Shown here: in pieces, positions 24,146 to 39,602 of the stretch
Layout: each line of letters starts with the position of its first letter
Position numbering within the stretch: the first letter of the stretch is position 1
Assembly: GCA_964609855.1 (NCBI GenBank)
Contig: CAZSTB010000001.1
Location: 119,170-183,169 of the forward strand
Direction: 5' to 3'
Origin: an uncultured Bdellovibrionales bacterium
GTDB lineage: Bacteria > Patescibacteriota > Minisyncoccia > Moranbacterales > GWC2-37-73
Length of the DNA stretch: 64,000 bases
The notes under the pieces: generated by a model
Told to the model about the DNA's origin: nothing
Seen by the model: only the letters and a program-made list of their open reading frames with translations
Database searches by the model: none
Position numbers and translations under genes: made by a program

Positions 24146-26914
24146 ATGTACGAAGATTTTTTAAGATATTTGAATATTGTATGGTTTTTTGTGCCTTTGG
24201 GCGTAGTGGGAATTTGGAGGTGGTCAATCTGGCTCACAAAAAAGTTGGTAGCGGCATTTTATCGGATGCCATCGGGAGAAATTCTCAAAGCCACCTTGGC
24301 GATAATAACGCCGGTTTATAATGAAAATCCACAAATATTCAAATGCGCCTTGAATTCCTGGAAAATGAATGGATCGCCTGATGAGATTATTGCCGTAATA
24401 GATTTTACAGATGAGGCATGCATTGAAGTGTTTAAAAGTTTTGCAAGAAAAAATCTTAGCGCAAAACTTATCGTCACGAAACTGCCGGGCAAAAGACAAG
24501 CATTAGCGGATGGCATTAGAAATGCAAGCAGCGAATTTGTGGCGCTTGTTGATAGTGACACGCTCTGGATTGATCCAATCAGGGATAAACTGCTGGCGCC
24601 TTTTTCGGATAATTTAGTTGGTGGAGTTTCGCCGCGGCAAGATATTTATCAGCCCAATAGTTTGGCGAGAAAATTATTCCAACTGAATTTATATAATCGG
24701 TATTTCGTTGAGATGCCTTTTTTGGGAGCGGTTGGCGATGCCCTGACTTGCTTGTCTGGCAGAACTGCTGTTTATAGGAAGTCTGCGGTCGAAGATGTGC
24801 TTGACCGACTGGTTGAAGAAAAATTTTTAGGTACGCCGTCGGTAAGCGGCGACGATAAGACATTGACGAGATTGATTCAGCAGGCCGGATGGAAAGCGAA
24901 ATACTTACGCGAAGCAGTGGTTTATACGCCGGGATTTAAGCGTCTTACTCCTTTTCTGCAGCAGATTATTCGTTGGAGTCGAAACAGTTGGCGTAGCGAT
25001 CTGCAAACCGTCTTTGACGGCTGGGTCTGGAAAAACCATAAAGTTCTCGGTTTGTATATGCTCGATAGGTTCCTGCAACCGTTTACATTGCTTTTGTCGC
25101 CGGTTTATTTGGTAGTGGCCCTAAGCTCTGGATATTGGAGATTCGCAGTTATTCTTATTATCTGGTGGCTGTTTAGCAGATCGATAAAAGTTTTTGGTCA
25201 TTTGAAAAAGCATCCAAGAGATATCTTAATCATTACACAGTATGTGATATTCACATTTGTTTCAGCGCTGATAAAAATTTATGCCTTGATAACTATCATG
25301 CAGCAAGGGTGGATTACTCGTTGGGACAAGAGCCGCATGCGAAAAATATCACTGCCGCTTCAATCATTCGCTTATGCGTTCACAGCTTTAATTATCTTTG
25401 CTTATGTGGGCATGATTTTTACATATAGAAATGAATCAAATCAAACTCAAAATTTTGATAATATCGCAATTAAAAGCGTCATTGCGACCGGTCCGAGAGA
25501 ACTTTCCAATTCTCGGCTAGTTGCCATGAAGCAGGATATATTAGCGGGAAGCGTAAATGATTCCAACGGAATTTACGCCGTAAAGTCAGGTGATTTTTTG
25601 CTGCTCTTGAAAAACAAGTTCAATCTAGCTTCCATTGATTTTTTGAAAACTGCAGATAATGAACCAATTGTGAATCCTAATAATATTTCCGTCGGACAAA
25701 AAATCGCCATCCCGTCGAAAGAAATGCGAAATATTTTAAATGCGGATGAGCTTCGCAAAAAGTCATATCGCCCTGCGATAATATTTTATGACAGCGGCTT
25801 GGATACGATATTTATTAAAGGCAGCGGAAGTGTGGTTACACCAACCATAATCAATAAGGCGCTTGGACGAAATTCTTCACTGCAAAAAACAAGCGATGGG
25901 GAATGGCTTTTGAAATCCAATCTTTACATAGGAAAAAATGTTACCTTGGTAATTGATAAACAGGATACGAAATATTTAAAATTAAAAAGTGACAATGAAA
26001 AATTTATCTGGATTCGTTCGCAAAATGGAAACATTCTGATTTCAGATACGAAAGTAACATCTTGGAATGAAAAAACTCAGCAACCAGATGACGAGCATAT
26101 TGATGGTAGAAGTTACATAACGGCTAAATCCAGCGGACGAATGGATATAACTAATTCTGAAATCGGACATTTGGGATATGTGGGTCTGCCGAAAAGAGGA
26201 GGACCGTTTGGCGGCTCATATGGGTTGTCTTGGAAAATAACCAGCGGAAAATTCAAGGACAATTTACTGACAGGTTCAGTCATGAACAGTTCGATTCATG
26301 ATAATTATTTCGGAATCTACTCTTTCGGCGCAACTGGGATTCTAATAAAAAATAACGATGTATTTCATAATGTGGAATACGGAATCGACCCACATGATGA
26401 TTCCAATAATTTTTTGATTACAGAAAATAGGACATACGAAAATGGAAATCATGGCATTATTCTTTCCAAGCGGTGTGTTAATAACGAAATTACAAATAAT
26501 ATTTCTTATAATAACAAGCTGCACGGAATAATGCTTGATCGGGATTCTAATAATAATTATGTGATTGGGAATGAGGTTTATGGAAATATTGACGGGATAA
26601 CTGTTTTCGAATCCGAACGAAATTTCATATTTGAGAATAAAATTGCTGATAACAAGCAAGGCATTCGACTCAATGGTGGTTCGGAATTTAACTATATCGA
26701 AAAAAATAATATTAGGAATAATGAAACGGGCATGCATGTGTATGGCGGCTCGAATAATAACGTAGCACTTAATAACAGTATTGTATCGAATAAAATAGGC
26801 TTATCTATTCAAAATTCGAACGGGAATATTTTTTATGGCAACTTTAAGCCGCATGACAATGAAAAAGATGGACACATAAATGTTGAATTAATCAGAAATG
26901 AAATTAAATTATAA
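24146..26914 (+). CDS. Processive family-2 glycosyltransferase (HasA/NodC/chitin-synthase-like) fused to a LysM domain and a right-handed parallel beta-helix domain
   Basis: ITPVYNE, DSDT, LSGRTAVYRK, SGDDKTLTR and QQIIRWSRNSW (QxxRW) motifs. About 6 TM helices. LysM (YAVKSGDFLLLL...VGQKIAIP). More than 10 ~22-residue NxxxxN beta-helix coils (NNxIxxN...GIxL). Confidence 0.7.
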   Translation: MYEDFLRYLNIVWFFVPLGVVGIWRWSIWLTKKLVAAFYRMPSGEILKATLAIITPVYNENPQIFKCALNSWKMNGSPDEIIAVIDFTDEACIEVFKSFARKNLSAKLIVTKLPGKRQALADGIRNASSEFVALVDSDTLWIDPIRDKLLAPFSDNLVGGVSPRQDIYQPNSLARKLFQLNLYNRYFVEMPFLGAVGDALTCLSGRTAVYRKSAVEDVLDRLVEEKFLGTPSVSGDDKTLTRLIQQAGWKAKYLREAVVYTPGFKRLTPFLQQIIRWSRNSWRSDLQTVFDGWVWKNHKVLGLYMLDRFLQPFTLLLSPVYLVVALSSGYWRFAVILIIWWLFSRSIKVFGHLKKHPRDILIITQYVIFTFVSALIKIYALITIMQQGWITRWDKSRMRKISLPLQSFAYAFTALIIFAYVGMIFTYRNESNQTQNFDNIAIKSVIATGPRELSNSRLVAMKQDILAGSVNDSNGIYAVKSGDFLLLLKNKFNLASIDFLKTADNEPIVNPNNISVGQKIAIPSKEMRNILNADELRKKSYRPAIIFYDSGLDTIFIKGSGSVVTPTIINKALGRNSSLQKTSDGEWLLKSNLYIGKNVTLVIDKQDTKYLKLKSDNEKFIWIRSQNGNILISDTKVTSWNEKTQQPDDEHIDGRSYITAKSSGRMDITNSEIGHLGYVGLPKRGGPFGGSYGLSWKITSGKFKDNLLTGSVMNSSIHDNYFGIYSFGATGILIKNNDVFHNVEYGIDPHDDSNNFLITENRTYENGNHGIILSKRCVNNEITNNISYNNKLHGIMLDRDSNNNYVIGNEVYGNIDGITVFESERNFIFENKIADNKQGIRLNGGSEFNYIEKNNIRNNETGMHVYGGSNNNVALNNSIVSNKIGLSIQNSNGNIFYGNFKPHDNEKDGHINVELIRNEIKL

Positions 26915-28184
26915 AAAAATTATAATATTTTTGATGCTTATACTCTTGGCAACATTTTTTCTGTCAAAGTTTTTTAGAAATGGTGAAGGCGCGGAAGCAA
27001 CTATACTTGTAGATGACACGGATGATGTTAAAGGTCTAGGTTATTCAGGTCAACAAAAAATCGTGCAAGATTCTAACGGAAATTTCTTCGTAACCTACAG
27101 AAAAAAATATCAGGGCAGGTATGAAATATTTGTTGCTAGAATATATTTGAAAGACCAAAATTGGAAAGTATCAGGTACAGAAAAACCGGTAGCATTGGTA
27201 GGGTCAAAAGCTGATCAGCGTGTGCCTTCAATCAATATTGGTACCGACGGAGTCTTGTATGTGGTTTGGTACGGAAGCGATGCGAATGAAAAAAACCAGG
27301 TAAATAATCGACAGATAAAGTTTGTAAAGTCTGCTGATAGAGGAAATACCTGGTCGTCAGCAAAAAACATTTCCCATGTTGACGGCTATGAGAGCAGTCA
27401 AGCTTATTGGCAGGAACATCCGTATATTTTAGTCGGCAAGAATAATAATTTATATGTAACTTGGGAAGGAAAGGACCGCGAAAATTCCAATCAACAAATA
27501 AAATTTTCAAAGTCAACTGATGGAGGTGAATCGTGGTCAGACTGGAAAAATATTTCTCCGGCAAAAGATAATACGCAATCGCGACCAACGCTCGTAATTG
27601 ATAGCAGTAAAAGATTACATTTATTTTTCTACTCTTCCCAATTAAATCAGCAAGATAACCAACAAATTAATTATTCCTGGTCTGATGATGGAGGCGATTC
27701 CTGGAGCCCATTTGTGGCTCTTTCCCCAGAGGATGTTGATGCGCGGCATGTAACTGCAGCAGGGATATCTGACAGCGTGCATATTGCTTGGCGGCAATGG
27801 GATTTAAAAGGAGAAGCTAGAATAATGTATAAAAAACTAAGTAAGGGAAATTGGCAAGCTGCAGAGATAGTTAGTAATGATGGAGAAAATCAATTTTTCC
27901 CTTCGATATCTGCAGGTAGTGTTGGAAATGTAGTTATTGGTTGGATGGAAACAGAAGATTCATTCAGTTTGCCTAGGGAGGATCCTGATAGTGGAAAAAT
28001 ATACGCAGCAGTTTTACGCGGAAATTCATTCGGCAAGCGAATAAAAATTGCAACTGATGGAGAAAATTTATACGCCAATTTCCCTCAGAATAATGAAAAT
28101 AAGCATTTTACACCTTTAATTTTTGAGTCGGCAGCTTCTTCTGCTGGCGGATATAGCATAATTTTTAAATACTTAAAATTGTAG
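26898..28184 (+). CDS. BNR/Asp-box repeat beta-propeller protein (sialidase-like fold), N-terminally anchored
   Basis: Asp-box repeats SADRGNTWS, STDGGESWS, SDDGGDSWS. 17 bp overlap with the upstream synthase gene. Confidence 0.7.
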   Translation: MKLNYKKIIIFLMLILLATFFLSKFFRNGEGAEATILVDDTDDVKGLGYSGQQKIVQDSNGNFFVTYRKKYQGRYEIFVARIYLKDQNWKVSGTEKPVALVGSKADQRVPSINIGTDGVLYVVWYGSDANEKNQVNNRQIKFVKSADRGNTWSSAKNISHVDGYESSQAYWQEHPYILVGKNNNLYVTWEGKDRENSNQQIKFSKSTDGGESWSDWKNISPAKDNTQSRPTLVIDSSKRLHLFFYSSQLNQQDNQQINYSWSDDGGDSWSPFVALSPEDVDARHVTAAGISDSVHIAWRQWDLKGEARIMYKKLSKGNWQAAEIVSNDGENQFFPSISAGSVGNVVIGWMETEDSFSLPREDPDSGKIYAAVLRGNSFGKRIKIATDGENLYANFPQNNENKHFTPLIFESAASSAGGYSIIFKYLKL

Positions 28185-33248: not shown

Positions 33249-34031
33249 ATGAAAAATACTGTTTGGTTGAAAATTTTCATGTTTATGTTCTTGATAATAC
33301 CATTTTTATCTCATGCTGGAAGTTGTAAGAAACCAAGTAGATCTTCTGATTGGGGAGCCTGTTCTGATAACTTCAAAAAAGCCGAAGATTTTTGTGATTC
33401 CAAAAATGCGCAATATAATCTCAGTGAATGTGACAAATGCTGTGGATACTTTGAAAATGTTTCTTGTGGAAAACCAAGTGAGTGTAAGATTTTAAAAAAT
33501 CCTCCAAAAACAACAGTTTCCATTCCGATTGTCAATGAGTCCAACGCAGTTGAAAATACATCTTCTGGCGAAGTAAGGCAAGAAATTCAATTAGAAAAGC
33601 AAAAAATTGAAGAAGATCAAAGGAGACAGGAGGAGTTGAAAAAAATTGAAGAAGAAAAACGATTGCAAGGGGAAAAAAATATCGCGGCTAAGCAAAAAAT
33701 TGAAAATATAAAAGTTGAGATAGATAATTTGATTAAGGAGCAAGATAGTACGATATTATTCGTGGAAAGCAGATCTGAAATAAAAAGATTTTTTCTTGGC
33801 GAGGATTATAAAAATATTGGTCAATTGAGAAGTGCATTGGTTAAAAATGACGCGCAAATAAGAAAACTCCAGCTATTATTACAGGAATCGCAATTTGAAG
33901 AAATAACAGTTGTTGTTCAGCAAGAATTGGAACAACTTTTGAATCAACAGTCAAAAATGAGTGAAACAATCGAGAGAAATAAAAGCACTTTTAGTTTGCT
34001 TGGTTGGTTTGTGAAAATATTAAGCAATTAG
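33249..34031 (+). CDS. Hypothetical secreted protein with Cys-rich N-domain and coiled-coil C-terminus
   Basis: Signal peptide, 8 cysteines in the first 90 aa, then charged heptad repeats. Confidence 0.45.
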   Translation: MKNTVWLKIFMFMFLIIPFLSHAGSCKKPSRSSDWGACSDNFKKAEDFCDSKNAQYNLSECDKCCGYFENVSCGKPSECKILKNPPKTTVSIPIVNESNAVENTSSGEVRQEIQLEKQKIEEDQRRQEELKKIEEEKRLQGEKNIAAKQKIENIKVEIDNLIKEQDSTILFVESRSEIKRFFLGEDYKNIGQLRSALVKNDAQIRKLQLLLQESQFEEITVVVQQELEQLLNQQSKMSETIERNKSTFSLLGWFVKILSN

Positions 34032-34081
34032 TTTTGTGCCTGATAAATTGAATGAAGTAATTAACAGGTGCTGATGGGTTT

Positions 34082-34852
34082 ATGCTCATAAGGATTGTAA
34101 ATAAAAAAATTTTTTCTATTTTTATAATAACTACACTCATAATAGTGGGTTGTATTATCTTTGGCTTGTATTCTTTATTTTTAAATTTTCAAAATGATTC
34201 AAAATTAAATATTCAAAATTCTTTTTCTGCAACCGAAACTAATTCTTCTCAAAATAATCAAGAAAGTGTGAAACAAGGAGACTTACTGCAAGAACCTGCT
34301 AAAGGTCAGTCTGAAAGTGTAACTGAGGATTTGACGGAAAAGGACGAAACCGTTATTGAGGTAATTGAATATGTTAACCAAAAATATGGATATGCGGTGT
34401 ATTTTCCTAGAAAATGGCACATTAATACTGATTCTTCCGAGAATCCTTTTCGAGAAATTGATCTGAATGAGAAGGAAAAATTCATGGTGAGTGGCCAAAC
34501 TTTCTGGTCAAATTACCAAGATATAAATAAATTTACACCGTCGGACAAACCTGATGATTTTCGCCTGCTTAGTCTTGCTGTTTATAAAAAAGATTCTTTG
34601 AAAGCTATTGAGGAATTCGCATCAGCGGCTGGATTTTATATCGAAGGCGATACGCAAAAAATACCTTTTTCAGCAAAGGATGCATCGGGGATTGAATTTT
34701 TGACACCTGGAATGTCAAAGGAAAATCCAAAAATACATATCATTTTTCAAAGGGAGGATATTTTCTATGTATTCACGCTAGCATTTACAAATTCCGATCC
34801 CGAAGTGATATCTGATATGGAAAGGATAGCAAAAGGATTAAAATTGATGTGA
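34082..34852 (+). CDS. Hypothetical membrane-anchored protein
   Basis: N-terminal TM, Ser/Gln-rich linker, globular C-terminal domain. Confidence 0.45.
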   Translation: MLIRIVNKKIFSIFIITTLIIVGCIIFGLYSLFLNFQNDSKLNIQNSFSATETNSSQNNQESVKQGDLLQEPAKGQSESVTEDLTEKDETVIEVIEYVNQKYGYAVYFPRKWHINTDSSENPFREIDLNEKEKFMVSGQTFWSNYQDINKFTPSDKPDDFRLLSLAVYKKDSLKAIEEFASAAGFYIEGDTQKIPFSAKDASGIEFLTPGMSKENPKIHIIFQREDIFYVFTLAFTNSDPEVISDMERIAKGLKLM

Positions 34853-34930
34853 TCGTATCAATATTAATTTCTTGTATTTTTTGATTAAAGTATTATAATT
34901 GAATCAATAATAAATTTAATAAAATAAAAA

Positions 34931-35509
34931 ATGAAAACAACAAAGAAATTGCTTGTTGTCGTATCAGTCTTGACTGTTTTAGTAGGCATTTCTGGAACGG
35001 CTTCTGCAAAAAGTTCTTGGGAAGACTTCTTTACGAGGGATGAGGCGAAAACCATTAAAAATATGGTTAAGGAGAGTATTATTCATGAATTTGAAAATCC
35101 TGATGGTGATTGGAAGAAGTTGATATCATCTAAAATGATTAAGAATGGTGCAATTGACGCAGAAAAAGTTGGGGATGAAATTGTAAAACAAAAAATATTT
35201 TCAGCTACTGCACCAAATAGCGCTGCTGGTGCAGATTTCTCTGTTTGTGATTCTGTGGACACGGATGAATGTTCATATTATGATGATGTAACAATTCCTG
35301 AAATAGATGTATCTAAAGCAGTTGATGCTTATGTTATATATGAAGTTGATGACGCAAATTGGAAATCGGATACTGGATTTGGTGTTACGTATCAATTTAT
35401 GAATAATATAAAGATTCGCAGCGGTCATGTCTATGTTCCTTATGGACATGGAGATAACGGTGTTTATGATGGAACTTTTACAGACTATAGGGTTATCGTG
35501 AACTACTAA
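34931..35509 (+). CDS. Hypothetical secreted protein
   Basis: Signal peptide ending ASA-KS. Confidence 0.45.
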   Translation: MKTTKKLLVVVSVLTVLVGISGTASAKSSWEDFFTRDEAKTIKNMVKESIIHEFENPDGDWKKLISSKMIKNGAIDAEKVGDEIVKQKIFSATAPNSAAGADFSVCDSVDTDECSYYDDVTIPEIDVSKAVDAYVIYEVDDANWKSDTGFGVTYQFMNNIKIRSGHVYVPYGHGDNGVYDGTFTDYRVIVNY

Positions 35510-35747: not shown

Positions 35748-36068
35748 ATGGCAACAAAACTCTATGTAGGTGGTCTTCCTTATTCAACTTCGGAAGATGC
35801 AATGCGAGATCTTTTTGCTCAAGCAGGAAGCGTTACCTCAGCAACGATCATCATGGATAAAATGACTGGTCGCAGCAAAGGTTTCGGATTCGTTGAAATG
35901 TCTTCTGACGAAGAAGCACAAGCAGCAATCGAAATGTTTGACAAAAAAGAGTACGAAGGACGTACTTTGACTGTAAATGAAGCTCGTCCAATGGAAGCTC
36001 GTCCTCCAAGACGTGATTTCAATGGTGGTGGTAACCGCGGTGGTTACGGAAGCCGAAACAACTACTAG
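35748..36068 (+). CDS. Glycine-rich RNA-binding protein with RRM (RNP-1/RNP-2) domain
   Basis: KLYVGGLPY (RNP-2), KGFGFVEM (RNP-1), C-terminal GGGNRGGYG tail. Confidence 0.85.
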   Translation: MATKLYVGGLPYSTSEDAMRDLFAQAGSVTSATIIMDKMTGRSKGFGFVEMSSDEEAQAAIEMFDKKEYEGRTLTVNEARPMEARPPRRDFNGGGNRGGYGSRNNY

Positions 36069-36088
36069 TTAATAGTCGTTGAGTCAAC

Positions 36089-36119
36089 AAAAAAAGAGGC
36101 AGTGATGCCTCTTTTTTTG
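36089..36119 (+). terminator. Rho-independent terminator
   Basis: aaaaaagaggcagtgatgcctcttttttt. Confidence 0.6.
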
Positions 36120-36338
36120 TTGTGTAATTTTTTTATTCCCGTAGAAGTGGAAATCCATTTACTGTATTTTGAATCATATTTGTATGCTTGTTATAAGGTC
36201 TGATTGGGATATCTTTCTTTCGGACAAGATAACGATAATGCGGGCTTAACCTTGCTTGGGTGTTTTATGCTGCTGAATATTGAAATTGCAAATACAAATA
36301 GACCCACATCCAGCAGGGTGCTATAATGACAACATGAA

Positions 36339-36536
36339 ATGATGTTAATGATTTATTTTTGCTGGTTTATGTCTGAGAATGAAACAACTGAAAAATATAA
36401 AAAAGCCTGGGAAAAATTTCAGGAAAAGATGGCCTCATTGAAAAAGAGACGCCATGAAATTTTGGCGCGCATTTCTGAGAAGTTGGATAGGCAACATATC
36501 GAAAAACTAAGAAAAAAATTAGAAGATCATGTATAA
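36339..36536 (+). CDS. Small hypothetical protein, overlaps downstream gene by 8 bp (ATGTATAA)
   Basis: 65 aa charged helical ORF, translationally coupled with 36529. Confidence 0.3.
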   Translation: MMLMIYFCWFMSENETTEKYKKAWEKFQEKMASLKKRRHEILARISEKLDRQHIEKLRKKLEDHV

Positions 36537-38451
36537 AGAACCATCATCAATTGAAACTACAGAAAGACAAGAGGCTCATGAAAAGCATGAAGCTCCGCGA
36601 AGCGTTGAAAAATCTGCTGCGGAAATTGGTGAGCAAATGATAGAGCAAGCAGGAAAAGAAGTTGCTGATTTTCAACAAGAAGGAATTGCTGAACTTGCTC
36701 TAGTCGAGGCACGGGCTGAGAAAGAGGGGCTTTCTATTGATGGCGCAGACAAAGAAGAATTGCAAGGACTAGGCAAAGAAGTAATTATTGCAAAAGAAGA
36801 ATTGGTTGCTGAAATTATGCCTCCATTAATTCCTAATATACCGCCTCCATTACCACAAGAATATCTGCAGAGGTTTTTAGTAACTCCACCTCCATTACCT
36901 AATACGCCCCCGCCACTTCCAGCGGAATATTTAAGCACTATACTGCCGTATTTACCAAGTACGCCTCCGCCTTTGCCTGAGGAGTATTTGCGTAGCACCC
37001 CACCTCCATTGCCAAATATGCCACCACCCTTGCCAGAAATGTCAACAAAAATTCAACAAGAAGAAGAAAAAAGCTCCACCATGAAAGAACGAGTCATTGA
37101 AAATCCTGAATTGTTGAGCGAAAAAGAAGCTTCAAAAAAATTACTTTCAGAAGAACGTATAAAACTTGCACAAGAAATTCGCGAACAAAGAAACGCTCAA
37201 GGCAGCAGGCTTTCTAGAATGAAAAATGTTCTTGAAACTGGACAAGAAAAATTAGAAGGAGAACAAGGCGACAAACAATTTGGAAGACTTTCGCAGTTGC
37301 AAAGCGCTGAAGCTAATTTGATGGCGGAAAGAATTTCTTCTGAAGAATTGAGCGAGCAAGATGCTGGTACAGAGAAAGAAAACATGAATCAGCTTATTGA
37401 AAATAGTGAAAAATTAAAATCAGTAAAGGAAAAAATAAAAGAGCATTACGAAAAGGCTGGTGAGATTTCAAGAGAAAGATTTGAAACCATTCAAAAAAGT
37501 GTAGAACAAACGGCTTTGAGAAATGGAGTATTTTTTGTGCATACAATACAGGAAAGTTCTCTTAAAAGACATAATGAACTCTCGAATGTTGCAAGTGAGG
37601 CAACATATGAAGATGATACCGACATTCTTCTTTCGCTGGAGCCAACGATATCTGCATCATCAATTTTTTCAGGAAAGTCAGAAGAAGGAAAAGTAAGTGG
37701 ATTATGGAGTGATACAGGCGGATTTATATTGGGTGGCGGCGATATTCAATATGCGGACAGAAATGATGCTGATTCTGTAAGTGAAGGAATAAAAAAACGA
37801 ACGATAGTTGGTGGTCCCAATAAGCAATCGATTGAAGATATTGATAAAGTAGTTTCAAAACGTGGAGAAATGGAATCCATGATTAAGGAGCGTGATGGTG
37901 TGAAAATGCAAGAGCAGGGTTCTGTTTATAATGAATTTATAATAAATAATCCTAAGGTTTTTGGATATTATCAGCCAGTTGGAATTGAGGAAGACGAGCT
38001 TTTTGCAGACGGTAAGTATTATGCTGGGGATATAAGTACCAAAACTGACTACGAAGAATTGACTTATATAAAAAGCAGACTTGAAAAATTTAAAACAAGA
38101 CCCGATCTTGTTTCTTCATTCACCATGGAAACTCCAGAACTGTATCAAGAAAAATTATCAGCGTTTCAAGCAAAGATAGCTCGTTTTAAAGAAAGATTTG
38201 AAAAAATGGCTGCGCGAGGTAATTCTCTGTATATAATGACACCAGACAAGAGCATGCATGAATATAATGGAGTAAATGAGGATGGTTCTGTAAACATGGG
38301 AAAACAATTGACACCAGAGGAAGTTGCTACTGGGCGCGCAGGTTTGTCAACTGAAAAGCGTAAAGAGCTTGGCGAAAAAGTTCTTGAGAAAAAAGTGTTT
38401 AAGAAGCAAGAAACCGCTGAAGAAGCAAGACAAATTATAAATAATTTATAA
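36529..38451 (+). CDS. Large acidic hypothetical protein with five tandem PPPLPxEYL proline-rich repeats
   Basis: IPNIPPPLPQEYL / TPPPLPNTPPPLPAEYL / STPPPLPEEYL / TPPPLPNMPPPLPEM. The rest is coiled-coil and charged. Confidence 0.6.
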   Translation: MYKEPSSIETTERQEAHEKHEAPRSVEKSAAEIGEQMIEQAGKEVADFQQEGIAELALVEARAEKEGLSIDGADKEELQGLGKEVIIAKEELVAEIMPPLIPNIPPPLPQEYLQRFLVTPPPLPNTPPPLPAEYLSTILPYLPSTPPPLPEEYLRSTPPPLPNMPPPLPEMSTKIQQEEEKSSTMKERVIENPELLSEKEASKKLLSEERIKLAQEIREQRNAQGSRLSRMKNVLETGQEKLEGEQGDKQFGRLSQLQSAEANLMAERISSEELSEQDAGTEKENMNQLIENSEKLKSVKEKIKEHYEKAGEISRERFETIQKSVEQTALRNGVFFVHTIQESSLKRHNELSNVASEATYEDDTDILLSLEPTISASSIFSGKSEEGKVSGLWSDTGGFILGGGDIQYADRNDADSVSEGIKKRTIVGGPNKQSIEDIDKVVSKRGEMESMIKERDGVKMQEQGSVYNEFIINNPKVFGYYQPVGIEEDELFADGKYYAGDISTKTDYEELTYIKSRLEKFKTRPDLVSSFTMETPELYQEKLSAFQAKIARFKERFEKMAARGNSLYIMTPDKSMHEYNGVNEDGSVNMGKQLTPEEVATGRAGLSTEKRKELGEKVLEKKVFKKQETAEEARQIINNL

Positions 38452-38551: not shown

Positions 38552-38776
38552 ATGATTAATCTATTGGAAACAAGAGGTTTGCTGATTATGCTCGGTGGTT
38601 TTCTATGGGCAGTTGTATTTGGATTGCTATCATTCAAAAAAGAATATTTTTTAGCGATCAGCTTCATAGGATGGGGAATATCTTTTGTCGGCAATGATAT
38701 TGACAGTCGACAAACAGTCGATGTCAATGAGAATCTTTGTAGCGAGCCAAGAAATGACTTGGGGCACGGAAAATAG
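38552..38776 (+). CDS. Possible small 2-TM membrane protein (weak)
   Basis: MINLLETRGLLIMLGGFLWAVVFGLLSF...; short with no homology signal. Confidence 0.2.
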   Translation: MINLLETRGLLIMLGGFLWAVVFGLLSFKKEYFLAISFIGWGISFVGNDIDSRQTVDVNENLCSEPRNDLGHGK

Positions 38777-38977
38777 TGAGGGCACAATTACATGCAAGAC
38801 TGGCGCCAATGCGGGAGTTTATCCCAGTATTTGTAATTAAATACTTATAGCTGTGAAGCAGAATTAATTGGTTAATGAATAGAATTAAAAATAAAAACAG
38901 GCATTGGACAAGAGTCAAAAAACATGCTACAATTAATGTATGCTTGATATGCGGGATTTTTCCCGGAAAAATAAGTA

Positions 38978-39002
38978 AAGACGGGTGAAGCCCGTCTTTT
39001 TT
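38978..39002. terminator. Terminator-like hairpin (paralog of the 20486 hairpin)
   Basis: aaagacgggtgaagcccgtctttttt. Confidence 0.4.
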
Positions 39003-39044: not shown

Positions 39045-39602
39045 ATGGAAGAAATCTATAAAACTAAAAAAATATTAAGTGCGGTTGCCAAAAACACCAG
39101 TCTGGGGCGCTTTTTAGGCACTGAAAAAAGCAAGAATGCAGTTTTAGGGGTAATGAATAAGCAGCATATAACAGTGGACCCTGGCAAACTTTCAGGTAGC
39201 AAGAAAGCTGCTTTTTTGAGAGCGGTATCGGATACGCACGTGTTTGGCGCTACCGCTAAGAAAGCTTTCGGCAGCGTTTACGGAAAAAATAAGGAGCAGG
39301 CTGAAAAGCAGCCTGCGGCAGCGGGAAATTCCAGGCAGGAAATTTATGATAAAATTATGAGTAAGAAAAATGGCTTTATGGAAAGAAAAGCTCTTGCTGA
39401 AAATAAAACTTCCAGTGGACCGGCTCGCGAAAAATCAAAAGTTTTGGATTTCCGAGTTAGTGGAATGAATATCAGAGAAGCTGACGGATTACTTGCGAAA
39501 GCGCAGGATAATCGGCATCCAATATATGACACCGGACATGGCATGGGAGCAGGAAATGAAAAAGAGGATAGGATTGCTCGTCTGAAAAATATTCAGTCCT
39601 GA
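39045..39602 (+). CDS. Hypothetical Lys/Ala-rich protein
   Basis: 185 aa, low complexity; no motif recognised. Confidence 0.35.
   Translation: MEEIYKTKKILSAVAKNTSLGRFLGTEKSKNAVLGVMNKQHITVDPGKLSGSKKAAFLRAVSDTHVFGATAKKAFGSVYGKNKEQAEKQPAAAGNSRQEIYDKIMSKKNGFMERKALAENKTSSGPAREKSKVLDFRVSGMNIREADGLLAKAQDNRHPIYDTGHGMGAGNEKEDRIARLKNIQS

Follow-up and report, generated by a model that had tools for sequence, protein, structure and literature searches.

The 64,000-nucleotide (nt) stretch of contig CAZSTB010000001.1 that is analysed here, which we refer to as the window, comes from an uncultured bacterium of the Patescibacteriota and encodes on its + strand an acidic protein of 640 amino acids (aa), in which the string PPPLP recurs several times within a short, proline-rich segment. 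The question that this locus raises is what such a segment does in a bacterial protein: the original prediction, made from the letters of the window, had described it as a eukaryotic-like polyproline ligand that could mediate binding or could simply form a rigid spacer. From the comparison of the protein with its homologs we have arrived at a different reading, which we hold with a probability of about 50%: the window protein would be a soluble enzyme associated with a type IV secretion system (T4SS), its proline segment would be a tether and docking motif specific to its own protein family, and its N-terminal module would bind the small protein whose gene is coupled to it. The parts of the protein, and of the small gene that precedes it, are as follows:

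36529-38451, + strand: open reading frame (ORF) of the 640-aa protein, stop codon included (ORF call)
36529-36816, + strand: acidic helical N-terminal module (N-module), residues 1-96; isoelectric point (pI) 4.4, net charge -14
36817-37044, + strand: proline-motif array, residues 97-172; four units of 19-22 aa with six PPPLP cores, 38% proline
36817-36856, 36883-36922, 36940-36979 and 36997-37036, + strand: the four copies of the DNA repeat that encodes the array (gapless direct-repeat search)
37045-37518, + strand: residues 173-330, with the conserved helix MKERVIENPELLSEKEASKKLLSEERIKLAQEIREQR and, behind it, a stretch that is charged and poor in proline (family consensus and composition)
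37519-38448, + strand: globular alpha/beta C-terminal domain (C-domain), residues 331-640 (AlphaFold2 model)
38035-38214, + strand: variable helical hairpin inserted in the C-domain, residues ~503-562; absent from shorter homologs
36369-36536, + strand: small basic helical partner ORF, about 55 aa counted from M11 (ORF call and homology)
36529-36536, + strand: 8-nt overlap, ATGTATAA, the end of the small ORF containing the start codon of the 640-aa gene

The position and the length of the 640-aa ORF agree exactly with the original prediction, and so does the acidic character of the protein (pI 4.89, net charge -34, computed from the sequence). The gene occurs in one other assembly only, the independent assembly L001 (SRR446575), which is identical to the window over 5,760 nt.

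The proline-motif array

The array consists of four copies of a bipartite unit, which can be written as xPP(P)LxPN-xPPPLPxEYL. The exact PPPLP cores, six in all, begin at residues 105, 120, 127, 146, 158 and 165, and two degenerate cores, PPLIP and LPYLP, are found in the same segment; the tail xEYL stands behind only three of the six exact cores, and the count of five PPPLPxEYL motifs that had been given earlier was therefore mistaken. Such a density is not a product of the composition of the protein: in 100,000 shuffles of its sequence, no shuffle had more than one PPPLP, and only 60 shuffles had any. The closely similar relative P0004, in which 27 of the first 29 residues match the window protein, has eight PPPxP cores.

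The four DNA copies are spaced by 66, 57 and 57 nt and are 63-78% identical in the gapless direct-repeat search, Tandem Repeats Finder calls no array in the region, and the same PPPLP peptide is written in different codons from one copy to another. The DNA tandem repeat that had been described as visible is present as these four copies. Taken together, the three observations identify the array as an old duplication that has been retained at the protein level by selection on the protein, and not as a recent, slippage-prone tract; the number of repeats does not vary between the window and L001.

The core of the family and its exchangeable parts

The original prediction had taken the remainder of the protein for a coiled coil rich in glutamate and lysine, which is wrong for half of the protein: residues 331-640 are modelled by AlphaFold2, from an alignment of 48 sequences, as a globular, mixed alpha/beta domain with a predicted local distance difference test score (pLDDT) of 94 and a predicted template modelling score of 0.91. 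Helix MKERVIENPELLSEKEASKKLLSEERIKLAQEIREQR is strongly conserved in the close family, with window residues ~195-220 resembling FSKEHSQEERDxLAxEIRxKR, and many distant members of the family open directly with this sequence; the charged, almost proline-free stretch that follows the helix is taken to be a coiled coil on account of its composition. The enzyme-like C-domain, located behind the conserved helix and the coiled coil, is the constant core of the family.

The first database search has returned 62 homologs at E<=1e-14, all of them in metagenome bins from the candidate phyla radiation (CPR, Patescibacteria) that are named Parcubacteria, Paceibacterota, Moraniibacteriota or Kaiserbacteria, and an exhaustive search with a hidden Markov model (HMM) of the trimmed C-domain has returned 517 clusters at E<=1e-3, 359 of them at E<=1e-10. 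Nothing above threshold has been found in Pfam, NCBIfam, PHROGs or PADLOC for the window protein, its partner ORF and several relatives, the N-module and the small ORF giving only sub-threshold coiled-coil noise in these databases. An origin in a mobile element was rejected, as no relatives have been found in viral contigs, plasmids or phages.

In a census of 199 collected proteins, to which all counts of family proteins below refer, the members share a common layout: an N-terminal address, a linker slot, the coiled coil and the C-domain. The address is the N-module in 49 proteins (43 with the main C-domain and six with another C-terminal domain), a bare proline-motif array in 17 and a multi-pass membrane anchor in six; 104 proteins have other N-termini, and the remaining 23 are fragments or consist of the C-domain only. 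The narrower alignment that we have used to scan for N-module loci has contributed five loci each from the genome and the metagenome collections. In its C-domain, the window protein has an identity of 87% with the proline-array protein P0003, of 80% with P0002, a protein of the N-module type, and of 74% and 70% with the membrane-anchored proteins P0005 and P0008; the classes are interleaved, and the N-terminal address is swapped even between close relatives.

The linker slot is no less variable, being occupied by PPPh[PT]xE[YF] motifs (0-11 copies), by one or two zinc ribbons, by a beta insert of ~75 aa, or by nothing. The ~75-aa insert takes the place of the proline array in P0002, L010, L012 and L015, where it reads ANIVG..NFEGSVIVK..GR.xGYALRK..G..EGN.I.YmKDGS.G..YQ.HE. 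Beyond the C-domain, many relatives (P0004, P0015, P0021-P0054) carry DUF4116 (PF13475) repeats, which the window protein does not have.

At the other end of the N-module proteins, the module is followed by one of at least four C-terminal regions that are unrelated to each other: the main C-domain, the P0061-type domain, a region containing the string HEILH (L008) and a region with an HG...C pattern (L016). A homology between the two best-sampled of these, the main C-domain and the P0061-type domain, is ruled out by an hhalign probability of 0.3%. The protein at L008:4001-5263 combines a hydrophobic segment with the HExxH-like string in its C-terminal region, while the one at L016:3498-5456 has LILGGHG...FVSCSTG, a His-Gly...Cys pattern of the caspase/CHAT kind; these protease-like strings have no support from Pfam, PHROGs or PADLOC.

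A probable docking motif of one bacterial family

Across the census, sites of the form PPP[LIVMF][PT] number 111 in 40 proteins, 103 of them unique; in the unique sites a glutamate occurs at +6 in 59% and a tyrosine or phenylalanine at +7 in 46%, and position -1 is usually T, V, L or M. Two flavours can be told apart: TPPPLPxEY[LIV], found in N-module proteins including the window protein, and W[DNS]PxSG[LV]PPP[FLM]TPE[YF]G, found in membrane-anchored and proline-array proteins. The placement of the motif varies, from the extreme N-terminus (P0037-P0049 and P0084) to the extreme C-terminus (P0016, which ends in ...VPPPLP, and P0017), and a six-frame translation of 208 kb of CPR DNA contains the motif with its E-[YF] tail solely in genes of the family. 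At the level of sequence, PPP-[LFIM]-[PT]-x-E-[YF] is thus a short linear motif specific to this family.

The motif behaves like a docking element, and not like a pure spacer, although it is probably an extended tether as well; this assignment is suggested by the specific flanks that are kept, by the multiplication of the motif and by its ability to sit at a free end. The main conservative rival is that the array is nothing but a stiff polyproline-II rod, which separates the N-module from the coiled-coil and catalytic part and has no specific partner. Such a rod would fit a segment with 38% proline in a slot that accepts other inserts or none, with a copy number that ranges from 0 to 11, and it would fit the order of parts in the membrane-anchored relatives (anchor, coiled coil, proline-rich stretch, globular domain), which is that of TonB and VirB10. 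We nevertheless regard it as quite improbable: a rod does not call for T, V or L at -1, E at +6, Y or F at +7 and, in the second flavour, W..SG upstream, it has nothing to space where the motif is located at the very N-terminus (P0037-P0049, P0084) or C-terminus (P0016) of a protein, and the encoding of identical residues by different codons indicates selection on the sequence. Of the two possibilities that had been left side by side, binding element and polyproline-II spacer, it is therefore the former whose look the motif has, given the E-[YF] tail over the 103 unique sites and the terminal copies.

The repeats are absent from many orthologs, e.g. from P0002, in spite of its closely similar C-domain, and with no signal peptide in the window protein this goes half-way to the outcome that the original prediction had held against its own proposal; the repeats recur, however, in 40 of the 199 proteins, over three different architectures.

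The third possibility, i.e. that the PPPLP runs imitate ligands of profilin or of EVH1, SH3 or WW domains and have a protein of a eukaryotic host as their target, is very improbable. The consensus ligands are [FWYL]PPPP for EVH1, PxxP with a basic anchor for SH3 and PPxY for WW group I, and the window motif, [ITM]PPPLPxEYL, fails all three patterns: it has three prolines, no aromatic residue ahead of them, an acidic flank in place of a basic anchor, an acidic-aromatic tail, and two residues between the last proline and the tyrosine. What it does contain are the bare strings PPLP, the core of WW group II, and PxxP, the core of SH3. With the Pfam family Drf_FH1, the window protein has no match even at E<=1; the relative P0057 has a weak one (E 0.0046, 17.2 bits), below the gathering cut-off of 40 bits. 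The confinement of the motif to one bacterial family, itself linked to a bacterial T4SS cluster, and the lack of a secretion signal are further points against an imitation of this kind, and the hosts of co-cultured Patescibacteria are reported as bacteria or archaea in PMC12102498. The label of a eukaryotic-like ligand is accordingly not one that the wrong flanks, the missing FH1 match and the restricted distribution would allow us to keep.

The small protein and the N-module

The small ORF that precedes the 640-aa gene starts mechanically at 36339, and homologous loci point to M11 at 36369, which is most likely the true start. Its core can be written as KYKxAWEKFQEKMxSLKKRRxEILxRISEKLDxQHIxKLRKKL, and with a pI of 9.7 it is opposite in charge to the acidic N-module (pI 4.4). 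The translational coupling of the two genes, which had been predicted, is borne out by the 8-nt overlap, and the arrangement is kept in every N-module locus that we have examined: the junction is an 8-nt overlap in L002, a direct abutment in L004 and a 1-nt gap in L006.

An HMM built from 13 such small ORFs and an HMM of the N-module have been run side by side on the six-frame translation of 259 kb: each finds 17 matches, all in adjacent pairs (14 distinct loci) and none elsewhere. A tightly coupled, basic ORF of ~50 aa is thus located upstream of the N-module in 14 of 14 loci. The pair persists when the C-terminal domain differs wholly, from which it follows that the small protein is a partner of the N-module and not of the catalytic end; for the same reason, namely that it co-varies with the N-module across unrelated C-domains, a role as antitoxin or immunity protein for the C-domain is excluded. 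We have also considered whether a helix like that of the small ORF is located behind the membrane anchor of the relatives in the T4SS cluster, which share a KxWEK string, and the small-ORF HMM finds none there.

At one locus, the partner ORF (L016:3397-3501) has an in-frame stop (MSEETEKINQARKKF*DKMASL...), while the N-module gene downstream is intact; the stop could reflect a pseudogene, an assembly error or recoding.

The link to the type IV secretion cluster

The membrane-anchored relatives P0008, P0012, P0079 and P0161, which carry the same C-domain and proline motifs, are encoded directly after the gene of a VirB4-like ATPase in four of the four cases with flanking DNA. The genes of the cluster follow one another as PrgI, TraC-like, VirB4 and the family member; in three of the four, where the contig reaches far enough, a gene for a T4SS pilin comes further downstream; the gene of P0161 overlaps virB4 by 20 nt, and the clusters of P0008 and P0161 adjoin yidC-rnpA-dnaA. 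Two clusters (L019:3336-3853 and L020:6403-6920) have an insertion of two small genes immediately behind the membrane-anchored family member, one of the two matching ParE_toxin weakly.

The position after virB4 had suggested a VirB1-like peptidoglycan hydrolase, a candidate that we have rejected, since there is no match to a lysozyme, amidase or NlpC/P60 fold and no Sec-type hydrophobic N-terminus in any soluble member; more generally, the family has no Pfam match to VirB1, VirB6 or VirB8, and no homology to a named component (VirB1/PrgK hydrolase, VirB6/TrbL, VirB8 or VirB10) has been found.

PMC12102498 describes a chromosomal, MPF-FATA-like T4SS in Patescibacteria, located near dnaA, from which relaxases are usually absent and in which VirB1 and VirB8 are mostly undetected. 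According to that paper, the cluster is widespread, epibiotic growth of one cultured Saccharimonadia strain is reported to require its genes, and the system seems to have been turned to a use other than conjugation. Our search of the literature has found no paper that names a substrate of this system or what the machine moves.

The C-domain as a putative transferase

The C-domain has about even odds of being an NAD-using transferase of the ADP-ribosyltransferase (ART) fold. Its invariant residues over the 48 aligned sequences are R331, H338, S352, E371, P372, S375, S377, R424, N468 and E469; in the model, H338 is located in strand 1 (FFVHT), S375 and S377 in strand 2 (ISASS), after one helix, and N468-E469 at the opening of a long strand. 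H338, S375/S377 and E469 stand in successive strands of the model, in the order and at the spacing of a putative [H/R]-S-E triad. In CteC, an enzyme of the R-S-E type (8ux2), the triad consists of R65, S97 and E220 (PMC10810742). The main residues of the C-domain follow in the same order and at similar spacing, which makes them candidate equivalents by position; unlike CteC, the C-domain has a histidine and not an arginine at the first place of the triad, and pairs it with S-x-S.

Indirect support comes from the P0061-type domain, which is found on the same N-module: its model (pLDDT 78) matches several structures of the ART superfamily, for which Tpt1/KptA, PARP, DarT and TccC3 are the comparators. 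Searches of sequence profiles from the PDB, with the C-domain and with the P0061-type domain, have returned only low-complexity and coiled-coil noise.

How the parts may work together

We propose that the window protein is a soluble member of a CPR family (of the Parcubacteria/Moranbacteria type) that is built of exchangeable parts, with three interchangeable addresses: a membrane anchor, encoded after virB4; the acidic module with its coupled basic protein; and a bare proline array. The array would be an extended polyproline-II tether that also docks multivalently on a conserved bacterial partner, most plausibly a component of the cytoplasmic face, or a client, of a T4SS-like machine. The array and the pair of N-module and small protein would together bring the catalytic domain to that machine, and the protein would either work on the cytoplasmic side, e.g. 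at the face of the T4SS, or leave by a non-Sec route through the T4SS. Inspection of the N-terminus has found no signal peptide in the window protein, as had been predicted, and a hydrophobicity screen of the first 200 residues finds a hydrophobic segment in only the six multi-pass membrane-anchored proteins; folding in the cytoplasm is suggested because no Sec-type hydrophobic N-terminus occurs outside these anchored forms.

Several results weigh against this reading. Searches of the 64-kb window with T4SS proteins (tblastn) have found no T4SS homologs, so that the window gene is linked to the T4SS by its close paralogs only. Hydropathy and charge do not give the membrane anchors an unequivocal topology, which leaves the cytoplasmic location of the family to indirect argument. 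The proline motif is missing in 159 of the 199 proteins and must therefore be dispensable for the core function. As regards the enzymatic part, a Foldseek search of the C-domain against the PDB has given no match, and no ART family of Pfam is matched in 20 members even at E<=10.

The same arrangement of parts can also be read as that of a translocated effector, in which the acidic N-module and its basic partner would be a secretion signal with its chaperone for the Patescibacteria T4SS, the C-terminal domains would be polymorphic effector or toxin enzymes that are sent into a host bacterium or archaeon, and the proline motifs would dock on a host target or on the coupling ATPase. Four observations speak for such a system: the constant N-module occurs with no fewer than four unrelated C-terminal domains, the partner ORF accompanies the module rather than the C-domain, a Sec signal is lacking, and relatives are encoded in a T4SS cluster. 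The architecture parallels that of polymorphic toxins, in which a trafficking module at the N-terminus is combined with a toxin part that varies at the C-terminus. Against it stands the lack of a conserved immunity-like gene downstream: the genes that follow the loci are unrelated housekeeping and other genes (rubrerythrin, tRNA synthetase, transporters, transposase). Moreover, no recognised secretion domain (LXG, WXG100 or signal peptide) is found by Pfam, NCBIfam, PHROGs or PADLOC, the window is without T4SS genes, and the HExxH and caspase-like assignments come from short motifs that Pfam does not back. On balance, we consider a translocated effector unlikely, though a serious alternative. 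Carried one step further, the N-module and its ~50-aa basic partner could be a new targeting device of the Patescibacteria T4SS, and the proteins the first family of candidate effectors for this T4SS: enzymes of a polymorphic kind, two or more types of which would be ART-like, would be delivered to the host, and the PPPh[PT]xE[YF] array would be a multivalent handle on the machine or on a host target. We consider this extension unlikely as well.

Bacteria of the CPR depend on host cells, and the present comparison ties a family of 517 unannotated sequence clusters to the T4SS cluster of these organisms, thereby giving candidate accessory factors or effectors of the T4SS and a peptide motif that can be used as bait for its partner. 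If the array were only a spacer and the proteins cytoplasmic housekeeping enzymes, the outcome would be a modest annotation of a lineage-specific family.

The neighbourhood of the gene

Outside the two coupled genes, the following features have been located around the 640-aa ORF:

36299-36327, + strand: promoter-like site before the small ORF, TAGACC-17-TATAAT plus TG upstream (consensus match only)
38552-38776, + strand: small membrane ORF of 74 aa, between the 640-aa gene and the next terminator; not conserved beside homologs
38977-38999, + strand: bidirectional terminator-like hairpin, the first + strand site of this kind 3' of the gene

Promoter-like sites are no more numerous in the region than in shuffled sequences; the one listed here lies after the strong terminator of the upstream gene, at 36085-36122. 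The 74-aa membrane ORF may be co-transcribed with the 640-aa gene, its membership in the operon being doubtful.

The neighbours of the gene are of the housekeeping kind (Obg, Dus, BipA, EngB, Lgt). The gene immediately upstream (35748-36122) encodes a glycine-rich RNA-binding protein of 106 aa with an RNA recognition motif (RRM), which has been identified by eye from the RNP-1 string in MATKLYVGGLPYS...KGFGFVEM, and ends in the very strong terminator mentioned above, with a 17-bp stem. Further upstream, at 33249-35509, there are three successive + strand ORFs (260, 256 and 192 aa), each with a hydrophobic N-terminus and without a convincing match in Pfam; in the first, a Cys-rich part is followed by a coiled-coil-like one. 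These proteins may belong to the surface of an organism of the episymbiont type. Past the operon terminator, an ORF of 185 aa (39045-39602) has no match in Pfam or NCBIfam and has also been called as a gene in L001. At 24146-28184, a family-2 glycosyltransferase is joined, in a protein of 922 aa, to a right-handed beta-helix of the NosD-like kind at the C-terminus, and the gene of this protein overlaps the start of one for a BNR-repeat protein of 428 aa. No tRNA or tmRNA gene has been found by ARAGORN within the window. The GC skew is positive in all 2-kb bins and the long ORFs are mostly on the + strand, which fits a single leading-strand segment of one replichore.

Comparison with known systems

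Polymorphic toxin and effector systems include the LXG toxins, which have small helical partners, and the T4SS effectors of Xanthomonas, which have a shared recognition domain. The family described here resembles them in its constant terminal module, in its variable enzymatic C-terminus, in the small helical protein encoded just upstream and in the lack of a Sec signal; it differs from them in having no downstream immunity gene and in its N-module, which is acidic and matches no LXG or WXG100 profile.

With the T4SS of Patescibacteria (Quinonero-Coronel et al. 2025, PMC12102498), the clusters of the membrane-anchored relatives share the layout of PrgI/VirB3, TrsD/TraC-like, VirB4 and VirB2-like pilins, and two of them also the proximity to dnaA; the sections of that account consulted here do not describe the family of the window protein. 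The window gene departs from this layout, being a soluble paralog among housekeeping genes, with no T4SS gene in 64 kb.

Lastly, the proline array is similar to the tethers of TonB and VirB10, and to the ligands of FH1 and ActA, in its composition and in its likely polyproline-II conformation, and the membrane-anchored relatives also share the order of parts; the family is set apart from these systems by the definite form of its motif, with an acidic-aromatic tail that is conserved, and by the variable placement of this motif, which includes the very termini of the proteins.

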